From positions 124,001 through 188,000 of the forward strand of contig JADIIX010000012.1 of assembly GCA_027604505.1 (NCBI GenBank): 64,000 nucleotides of DNA. Direction: 5' to 3'. This DNA is from Gonapodya sp. JEL0774 (taxonomy: Eukaryota). The translations under genes were made by a program, and so were the position numbers. Below, piece after piece: positions 35,017-36,925 of the stretch (position 1 is the first letter of the stretch; every line of letters starts with the position of its first letter). A model generated the notes under the pieces. That model did not search any database, was not told the DNA's origin, and saw nothing but the letters and a program-made list of their open reading frames with translations.

Positions 35017-36925
35017 ATGGAGGACCAAGACACTCTGTCCCCGTTTCCATACACACTCGATCAAAGCCAGGTTCTGGCAAGTTTGGTGGACATGGTCGTG
35101 GCTGCGATGGTGGGTTCATTGGAAGCGCGCGGAAGGGGTAGGGGGGTGGGCTTTTCCGCCTGCGAGCCACAGCTCACATGACGTCATTCTCCCGTCATTC
35201 TCCCGACTACCTCATTCCCTATCATAATATCTCCCGACTCCCAGAGCGCGATCGCGAATTTGATCGTGCTTTCTTACTATGTGGTTAAGATGCGGGTGAG
35301 TGAGCTTGTGTGCGAAACGTTTCGCCAGCCTGAATACGGAAAACGGGCCGGCGGAAGTGCGGAATGGATACGGGGCGACTATCGATCATTACTGAGCAAA
35401 GGTTACTCCCAGAACCAGAAACCCAAAGGCGGCGAACTCCAAGACATCATCGCGTCGACGTGTATTTTCGTGCGTTGAAAACCTCTGTCTCCTGTAACGC
35501 ACTTTACGTGGCCCGCTCTCCCACCGTGATCGACCGTCGTTGTTTGTGTCTCTTCTCCTGTCCACCTCCACCACCTCCACCACCACCGGATGCAACCGGG
35601 CCACCCTACCCTCGATCATCTCCAGTCCGACATGGTGGCACAATCCGCCCGACTCTGCGTGAAAACCTCCCTGCTCTTTGCGGGTGGTCCTCCCAAACTC
35701 ACCTTTGTCCAGTGCCAGTCTCTCGCCATCCTGTCCGTGGTGCCGTGGGGGGGAACCATCCTCGCGTACGCGCAGCTGGCGCTGGAGAGGTACGACGCTC
35801 TTTACACGTGGAGGCATCAGGTGCGAAAAACGGGGGGAGTTCTCTTTGCAGGTTGTTTGCATTTCGTGTATGATGAGTCCATCTCCTGAATTTTTCTTTT
35901 CGTGGTCCAACTCGGACTAGGTTGAAGAGGAAACTAAAAGGGATAAGCAGGGCTACTTGGGCATGTCCCGATCGTCGGCACTGAAAATTCTCGCAGGCGG
36001 ATACGCGTTTTCGTTTGTTGTTGGAATCAGTCATCTGTGGCGTGGATGTGAGTTCTGTCGCCTCTTTTGACTGGACGATGTTTGCGAAACCAACTTGCGG
36101 GCTCATGCGGCCGGGGCTCACACGTGTCACACCGCTCAAACACATGTAGATGTTTTGTCCCCGAGTGGTTTGACATGTCAATTTAAGTAGTGAGTTTTTG
36201 GTGTAGTGGCCGAAGGAGAGGAAAGACAGTTCCGATCTATGATCTCGGGAGGTCTTGTTTCGAAGCTGAGCGTCTCCATCCCCCCCCCCCCCCCCACCCC
36301 CGCTTTCTCCATCCAAGTTGGAGCCACCTCCCCATCGATATCGCATACACTTTGGTCACTTTAAGCGGTATACTCGCCGCCATCACGGCCATCGTGTTCA
36401 GCTCCGTCTGGATCACGATCGGTGCTGCAAAGGACGTGGACGCCGGGAAGTTCCAACTTGACATCAAGAAGGACCCTTTTGCAAAACACGCGCCGTGGGA
36501 TAAGAGGCTGGCTGAGACGAGGCTGGCGACGACTTGGAAGCGCATTTCCGCCACTTACATCATGCAAGTGTTGTGTTTTAGGTTTACCTTCTGCGATTTT
36601 GATACGATTGTTCCTGGTGGTGTTTGCTGTCTGCTTTGATCCGATTTCATCAGCTGTTGGGGACCTGAAGTGGTCGCAATATTCTGGGAAGCCTACACTG
36701 GCGCACCTGCCGATCCGCACTACACCCAGTTCAGCTTCATCATGATCAAGCTGTGAGTTGCCGAGAACGCTCGCTTTGAATGCCCCGTTGATCTTTCACT
36801 GATTCGAGTGATCCATGGATGTGGTTGGGCTTCCGTGTGTGACGCGAGGTATTAGAATGGCGTTGATCCAGCCACTGCTTATTTTGTTCGATCCTGCACT
36901 CTTTATGATAGATACTAGTGATTAA
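35017..36925 (+). CDS. Class A (rhodopsin-like) GPCR with Lys at 7.43: type 2 opsin-like protein, 9 exons, 325 aa
   Basis: Exons 35017-35109, 35245-35295, 35413-35469, 35626-35820, 35921-36047, 36150-36189, 36318-36563, 36654-36752, 36856-36925 total 978 nt, open and phase-consistent. Motifs: TM1 AIAN, TM2 IFSD, C3.25 exactly 25 residues before R of ERY, ECL2 YVLSPSGLTC, TM6 CWGP, TM7 K-x6-P. Confidence 0.88.

Follow-up and report, generated by a model that had tools for sequence, protein, structure and literature searches.

A 64,000-nucleotide stretch of the genome of the monoblepharid Gonapodya sp. JEL0774 (assembly GCA_027604505.1, contig JADIIX010000012.1, positions 124,001 to 188,000; hereafter the window, numbered from its first letter) contains a nine-exon gene for a predicted seven-helix protein with a lysine at position 7.43, the hallmark residue of animal opsins. 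An initial annotation had described the product as an animal-type (type 2) opsin and a retinal-binding photopigment. We conclude that the gene model specifies a divergent fungal GPCR (G protein-coupled receptor) of the Rhodopsin family (class A), which we do not class as an animal opsin. The reading we favor, and place slightly above an even chance, is that this is a chemoreceptor whose basic pocket, made up of Arg2.57, Lys2.61 and Lys7.43, is predicted to bind a small anionic ligand. The likelihoods that we attach to this and to three other readings are judgements and were not computed.

Joining the nine exons by their coordinates (Table 1) gives an open frame of 325 residues from the ATG at 35017 to the TAA at 36923-36925, reproducing the phase-consistent structure first proposed for the locus; an AATAAA at 36925-36930 overlaps the end of the stop codon. 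The G+C content by codon position is 0.52/0.42/0.66 over the joined exons, a coding pattern. Introns are 90-156 nucleotides long, with a GT donor in seven of the eight and a GC donor in intron 7. The donor GTGAGT is used in four of the eight, and this hexamer occurs 74 times in the window compared to 39 expected. Intron 6 (36190-36317) ends with an AAG acceptor. Using an alternative intron-4 acceptor at 35950 removes 10 residues to give a 315-residue product, and we prefer the acceptor at 35920 because the closest homolog has the longer second intracellular loop (ICL2). An intron-6 donor at 36187 was dropped, as it would remove a residue that the same homolog keeps.

That homolog, HDU93_005893 (KAJ3341029.1; P0001), also from Gonapodya sp. 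JEL0774, was the single protein returned by a search with exon 4 (expect value, E, of 4e-15). Scanning 1.84 billion representatives with P0001 in HMMER added HDU93_001929 (KAJ3342543.1; P0002) from the same organism. Both align to exons 1-7 only, with 135 of 251 positions identical for P0001 (54%) and 108 of 235 for P0002 (46%), as computed with the 315-residue version of the model. All three proteins have PWGG at 3.35-3.38, ERY, Arg2.57, Lys or Arg at 2.61, and Leu3.28; the source labels both homologs hypothetical proteins and names neither a GPCR. P0002 seems to retain the intron after exon 3 and to miss the exon for the second extracellular loop (ECL2). A third match, a 1165-residue tandem-repeat protein with 23 matching residues (P0003), was dismissed as spurious. 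Beyond these three, neither word-index protein searches nor the full HMMER scan found further relatives, metagenome scans gave 112 and 142 pattern matches of which tblastn upheld none, and the window holds no paralog. The product of the gene itself never came back in protein searches, which weakly suggests that the locus is unannotated.

The records of P0001 and P0002 both stop in the middle of transmembrane helix 6 (TM6), at the codon split by intron 7, and neither includes TM7 or position 7.43. This shared stop would be explained by reading through a phase-2 GT donor, which gives an in-frame stop codon. The common endpoint supports the junction, though TM7 is covered by neither protein. Homolog alignment supports exons 1-7, and exons 8 and 9 are predicted from sequence alone. 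For these exons, the GC donor at 36564 is the only one of five in-frame intron-7 donors that sets Glu6.30 and Pro6.50 20 residues apart, and the GTGAGT at 36753 is the only one of four intron-8 donors that separates Glu6.58 and Pro7.50 by 27. The other four intron-7 donors and three intron-8 donors were dropped for breaking the canonical spacing, and so, because no TM7-like end results from them, were the remaining 16 AG acceptors of intron 8. Patterns for TM6 and TM7, picked after the sequence had been seen, were tried on random stretches of the window: 117 of 20000 had a comparable [CSTA]WxP motif behind an intron, and with the first YAG acceptor 73 of 20000 had the [NQD]P spacing (893 of 20000 for the proline alone).

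Two registers place Lys302 at 7.43. It lies seven residues ahead of Pro309 (7.50), exactly as first annotated, and 20 residues beyond Glu282 (6.58), which is encoded in the same exon 8. The usual pocket-facing residue at 7.43 is a tyrosine. Krishnan et al. 2012 (PMC3251606) described 12 fungal Rhodopsin-family GPCRs from Allomyces, Spizellomyces and Batrachochytrium, found by Pfam 7tm_1, that group separately from those of human and Trichoplax. Reading their Dataset S1 by eye, we counted 27 ungapped residues between Glu6.58 and 7.50 in SPPG_03814, 00617, 07634, 08085, 07927 and BDEG_04847. Because 7.43 is Glu+20 in these six receptors and Glu282+20 is Lys302, the assignment is independent of the last acceptor. 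In the same dataset, 7.43 is S, S, S, Y, V, Y, C, Y, Y, H, V and A across the 12 receptors; four have the tyrosine and none has lysine.

The model has seven hydrophobic segments, those of TM2, TM3, TM4 and TM6 being moderate, and it displays class A hallmarks at canonical spacing: Asn1.50, Asp2.50, Cys3.25, ERY, Cys45.50, Glu6.30, CWxP and Pro7.50. Cys97 (35713) and the ERY arginine, Arg122 (35788), are 25 residues apart, and the coordinates first given for both, for the Y-x8-C loop and for Lys302 are exact. The initial call of a class A GPCR gene with Lys7.43 in an early-diverging fungus is borne out. By eye, W4.50, P5.50, Y5.58 and Y7.53 are apparently substituted, and the NPxxY motif of opsins is absent, with Gln-Pro at 7.49-7.50 and Ile at 7.53 (Gln-Pro-x-x-Ile). 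In Pfam, neither P0001, which lacks TM7, nor any of five exon pieces matched a family at E up to 1. By its language-model features P0001 falls among 7tm_1 clusters (score 0.94) and has 147 of the 256 features in common with them, a share below the usual within-family level.

Searches against Protein Data Bank (PDB) sequences gave no match to P0001 at E up to 10 and only two chance matches to exon 8. A profile of the homologs drew four weak matches, three of them unrelated; the only GPCR was a melatonin-related receptor (E 3.6). The AlphaFold model of P0001 consists of six long helices, without TM7, at a predicted local distance difference test score (pLDDT) of 58. With this low-confidence model, the best 50 Foldseek matches are all GPCRs by title, headed by a neurotensin receptor (best E 0.005). 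Opsins make up 12 of those 50, the top one at rank 5, with E-values all within a factor of 4, and such fold searches do not rank opsins meaningfully against other GPCRs. A wide fold search (VIA) with the same model gave best Z scores of 9.0 to a BAR domain and 8.7 to TAS2R14 (root-mean-square deviation 5.5 over 206 aligned residues).

The residues predicted to line the ligand pocket differ from those of opsins. Arg2.57 and Lys2.61 share a helix face with Asp2.50, and both positions are basic in all three Gonapodya proteins. Counting Lys7.43, the extracellular ends of TM2, TM6 and TM7 carry three basic residues and two acids (Glu6.51 and Glu6.58). The known counterion sites of opsins have no acid: positions 113, 181, 94 and 292 correspond to Leu100, Ser178, Lys80 and Phe298. 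Two retinal contacts are also changed, with Trp108 at the position of Gly121 (3.36), a tryptophan in all three Gonapodya proteins, and Glu275 at that of Tyr268 (6.51). A bulky residue at the Gly121 position impairs pigment formation. Gly121 touches the methyl groups of retinal (PMC5025775, PMC2717693), and Tyr268 is 97% conserved in visual GPCRs, second only to the lysine (PMC5025775). Neither the animal-type opsin label nor the proposed photopigment is shown by the sequence: P0001 and its profile matched no opsin among PDB sequences at E up to 10, and Gly121, Tyr268 and NPxxY are replaced. These pocket features, overlooked in the initial annotation, cut both ways: Arg76 and Lys80, at rhodopsin positions 90 and 94, and the lack of a counterion would, if the protein were a pigment, predict ultraviolet (UV) rather than visible absorbance.

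Several features link the receptor to the fungal set of Krishnan et al. 2012, including the Asp in TM2, ERY, the ECL1 and ECL2 cysteines, a similar ECL2 loop, Glu6.58 and the TM6-TM7 spacing. SPPG_03814 also has Glu6.51, in its case without a lysine at 7.43. The protein differs from the set in its lysine and in that P0001 is not matched by 7tm_1 at E up to 1; it has QP in place of NP, and members of the set vary at 7.49-7.50 as well. The ECL2 spacing Y-x8-C, which the initial annotation had likened to rhodopsin, is present (Tyr175 to Cys184), but it fails as an opsin marker because the lysine-less SPPG_00617, AMAG_11340 and SPPG_02538 share it (by eye).

The published precedent for a fungal opsin of this type was taken at face value in the initial annotation and appears to be doubtful. 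Ahrendt et al. 2017 (PMC5410147) presented SPPG_00350 of S. punctatus as the sole type 2 rhodopsin of fungi to have the lysine, and their methods record that one cytosine was inserted into the genome by hand. In supplement 7 of that paper, the original JGI model has a 65-bp GT-AG intron there, a normal hydrophobic TM7 and Ile at 7.43, and the claimed lysine, K320, falls in the read-through of that intron. K320 is therefore probably a gene-model artefact, which makes the present gene more unusual than the initial annotation supposed. SPPG_00350 shares the fungal class A scaffold, Arg2.57, the cysteine pair, ERY and a claimed retinal lysine with our receptor, but has Asp3.28 and Tyr6.51 where ours has Leu3.28 and Glu6.51. 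Since its spliced model combines Arg2.57 with Ile at 7.43, the basic residue at 2.57 does not depend on the lysine. A 2025 survey (PMC12716839) traces both Lys296 and class A GPCR light sensing to stem animals and reports no Lys296 among its aligned holomycotan sequences (three representatives). In literature mostly excluding subscription papers, figure images and FigShare or GitHub data, we found no account of this gene or of another fungal class A receptor with Lys7.43. Galindo 2022 gives two 'type 2 rhodopsin-like' matches in G. prolifera, KXS11833.1 and KXS12111.1, either of which may correspond to the present gene. Among the fungal receptors that could be checked, Lys7.43 is not reliably reported outside animal opsins.

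Three considerations lead us to favor the chemoreceptor: its scaffold is that of a fungal receptor, two of the retinal contacts differ, and it seems unlikely beforehand that retinal-binding GPCRs originated twice. The loop and helix motifs, namely an ECL2 of the Y-x-L-x5-C type, Glu6.58 and the 27-residue spacing, match lysine-less fungal receptors; no opsin appears among the PDB sequence matches of P0001 or its profile (E up to 10); and, besides the substitutions of Tyr268 and Gly121, positions 113, 181, 94 and 292 are without acid. In this receptor, the basic residues would face one pocket beneath a rhodopsin-like ECL2 lid, and at rest Lys7.43 would be paired with Glu6.51 in a salt bridge. 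A carboxylate or phosphate ligand docking on the Arg/Lys cluster would break this pair, shifting Trp6.48 against Trp3.36, freeing the Arg3.50-Glu6.30 lock and activating a G protein. As a guess, the ligand could be a host-, food- or mate-derived acid detected by swimming cells.

Several points weigh against this preference. Side-chain directions were derived from residue numbering and helix periodicity. Lysine at 7.43 is rare, being absent from all 12 catalogued fungal receptors and found in 2 of 1084 non-opsin (outgroup) GPCRs in a study whose authors consider that it most likely marks an opsin (PMC9368030). The basic cluster suits a pigment equally well, because Lys or Arg at 90, 91 and 94 beside Lys296 is the recipe of UV opsins (PMC5544684, PMC12405127), and coral opsins use chloride, so that a protein counterion is dispensable (PMC12401545). 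Finally, retinal is probably present in the genus, judging from the genes of G. prolifera: Table S3 of PMC9616733 lists a carotenoid oxygenase and type 1 rhodopsins, with phytoene synthase and dehydrogenase not found.

These points feed the main competing explanation, a retinal-binding photopigment predicted to absorb in the UV, which we regard as a real though distinctly less probable possibility. The Schiff base formed on Lys302 would be unprotonated, its neutrality maintained by Arg76, Lys80 and the missing counterion, and a visible photoproduct could have Glu275 as its counterion, a new position for this role. The lysine would have been gained independently of animal opsins or, less likely, inherited from a shared ancestor. 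On a fungal class A scaffold and with a lysine of its own, the protein would give Monoblepharidomycetes the first sound light receptor of animal style beyond the animals. It would have been overlooked because gene predictors halt at the phase-2 intron in TM6. The two agreeing registers for so rare a lysine speak for a pigment, as do the rhodopsin-like length of the ECL2 lid, Trp6.48, an aromatic residue at the 191 position, and small residues at 3.37-3.38 that could restore the space taken by Trp3.36. Retinal-using proteins are, moreover, known in the genus (PMC9616733). Animal UV opsins likewise combine Lys7.43 with a basic outer end of TM2. Lys90, present in insect UV opsins and Drosophila Rh7, keeps the Schiff base unprotonated and confers UV sensitivity on insect opsins (PMC5544684); the same holds for Lys or Arg at position 91 of Opn5m (Lys91 in vertebrates) and at 94 of an annelid Opn3-type opsin (PMC12405127). 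However, PDB searches with P0001 and its profile (E up to 10) gave no opsin and showed no sequence kinship, and Gly121, Tyr268 and the NPxxY tyrosine of opsins are replaced here. In the literature as available we found no class A receptor from outside animals whose Lys296 is sound, and PMC12716839 saw none among its aligned holomycotan sequences. To these we add our own low prior for a second origin of a retinal GPCR.

We think it rather unlikely that the lysine is an incidental, lineage-specific change in a fast-evolving receptor, tolerated through neutralization by Glu6.51 and uninformative about the ligand. The family is very divergent, with no Pfam match and a nearest homolog only 54% identical, 7.43 varies freely among the 12 fungal receptors, and a scan of many genomes will meet some lysines by chance. 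Yet a buried lysine is costly and rare (PMC9368030), and the adjoining basic residues are kept in all three Gonapodya proteins. Least probable, in our view, is that introns 7 and 8 are spliced otherwise or that the gene is decaying, so that no such protein is made. The GC donor has a T at -1 and a hexamer that is not enriched in the window (39 versus 35 expected), intron 6 ends in AAG, no homolog covers exons 8 and 9, and the tail is just 16 residues. Against this stand the open frame across nine exons, the spacings of 20 and 27 residues, which arise solely with the chosen junctions, the endpoint shared by both homolog annotations, and the low chance rates of the TM6 and TM7 patterns.

The coordinates of the gene and of its nearest neighbors are collected in Table 1. 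This one small gene has both a GC-AG intron and one that ends in an AAG acceptor; in the latter, intron 6, a run of 17 C lies at about 36280-36296. In a Pfam scan of 89 of the 422 long frames in the window, the neighboring genes offered no light-signaling context. In the ABC-F-type ATPase downstream, the N-terminal region (about 38596-40400) is Lys/Glu-rich, repetitive and unusually long. Elsewhere in the window (744-63772), Pfam identified a GH31 glucosidase, GatB, acetyl-CoA carboxylase, a GRAM/VASt lipid-transfer protein, an FMN dehydrogenase, SF3A1/PRP21, a UBX and LRR protein, an Est1/SMG6-like PIN protein, an EFL1-like GTPase, an MCM-binding protein and a P-type ATPase. At E up to 0.001, Pfam matched nothing in a 749-residue open frame at 51320-53566 (+).

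Table 1. Exons, selected introns and key residues of the predicted receptor gene, with its identified neighbors in the window
Feature	Position	Strand	Remarks
Exon 1	35017..35109	+	Short N-terminus from the start ATG, then first half of TM1; aligns with P0001/P0002
Exon 2	35245..35295	+	Remainder of TM1; Asn36 (1.50; 35257-35259)
Exon 3	35413..35469	+	ICL1 and start of TM2; P0002 annotation runs into an insertion at the same junction
Exon 4	35626..35820	+	TM2-ECL1-TM3; 63% identity to P0001. TM2: Asp69 (2.50), Arg76 (2.57 = rhodopsin 90; 35650-35652), Lys80 (2.61 = rhodopsin 94; 35662-35664). TM3: Cys97 (3.25; 35713), Leu100 (3.28), Trp108 (3.36; 35746-35748), ERY Arg122 (35788-35790)
Exon 5	35921..36047	+	ICL2 and TM4
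Exon 6	36150..36189	+	ECL2 lid; 83% identity to P0001 (alignment A1); Tyr175 (178 equivalent), Ser178 (181 equivalent), Cys184 (45.50; 36176-36178)
Exon 7	36318..36563	+	TM5, ICL3, first half of TM6; Glu254 (6.30; ionic-lock position)
Intron 7	36564..36653	+	GC-AG, phase 2; P0001 and P0002 annotations both end at its codon
Exon 8	36654..36752	+	CWxP, ECL3, TM7 up to Lys302 (7.43; AAG 36748-36750); Trp272 and Pro274 (CWxP), Glu275 (6.51 = Tyr268 position; 36667-36669), Glu282 (6.58)
Intron 8	36753..36855	+	GTGAGT...TAG, 103 nucleotides; 36855 is the first YAG past the donor
Exon 9	36856..36925	+	End of TM7, Gln308-Pro309 (7.49-7.50), Ile at 7.53, 16-residue tail, stop TAA
Metaxin/FAX-like glutathione S-transferase (GST_N_4, GST_C_6)	31630-32715	+	Pfam; nearest identified upstream neighbor
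ABC-F-type ATPase (ABC_tran, ABC_tran_Xtn)	37343-43400	+	Pfam
GH16 glycosyl hydrolase pieces	27486-30613	-	Secreted-looking; Ser/Thr/Ala-rich frame downstream

SPPG_00350 has been the sole published fungal counter-example to a stem-animal origin of the retinal lysine, and the present gene is a better-founded fungal receptor with Lys7.43. The TM7 of this receptor group is absent from both public annotations that we found. Retinal binding, if it occurs, would mean an animal-type light receptor in a non-animal, whether through a second origin or an earlier one, and would give optogenetics a further, very divergent scaffold. If it does not occur, the protein would be a clear example from nature of a Lys7.43 that holds no retinal, and would warn against calling opsins by the lysine alone.

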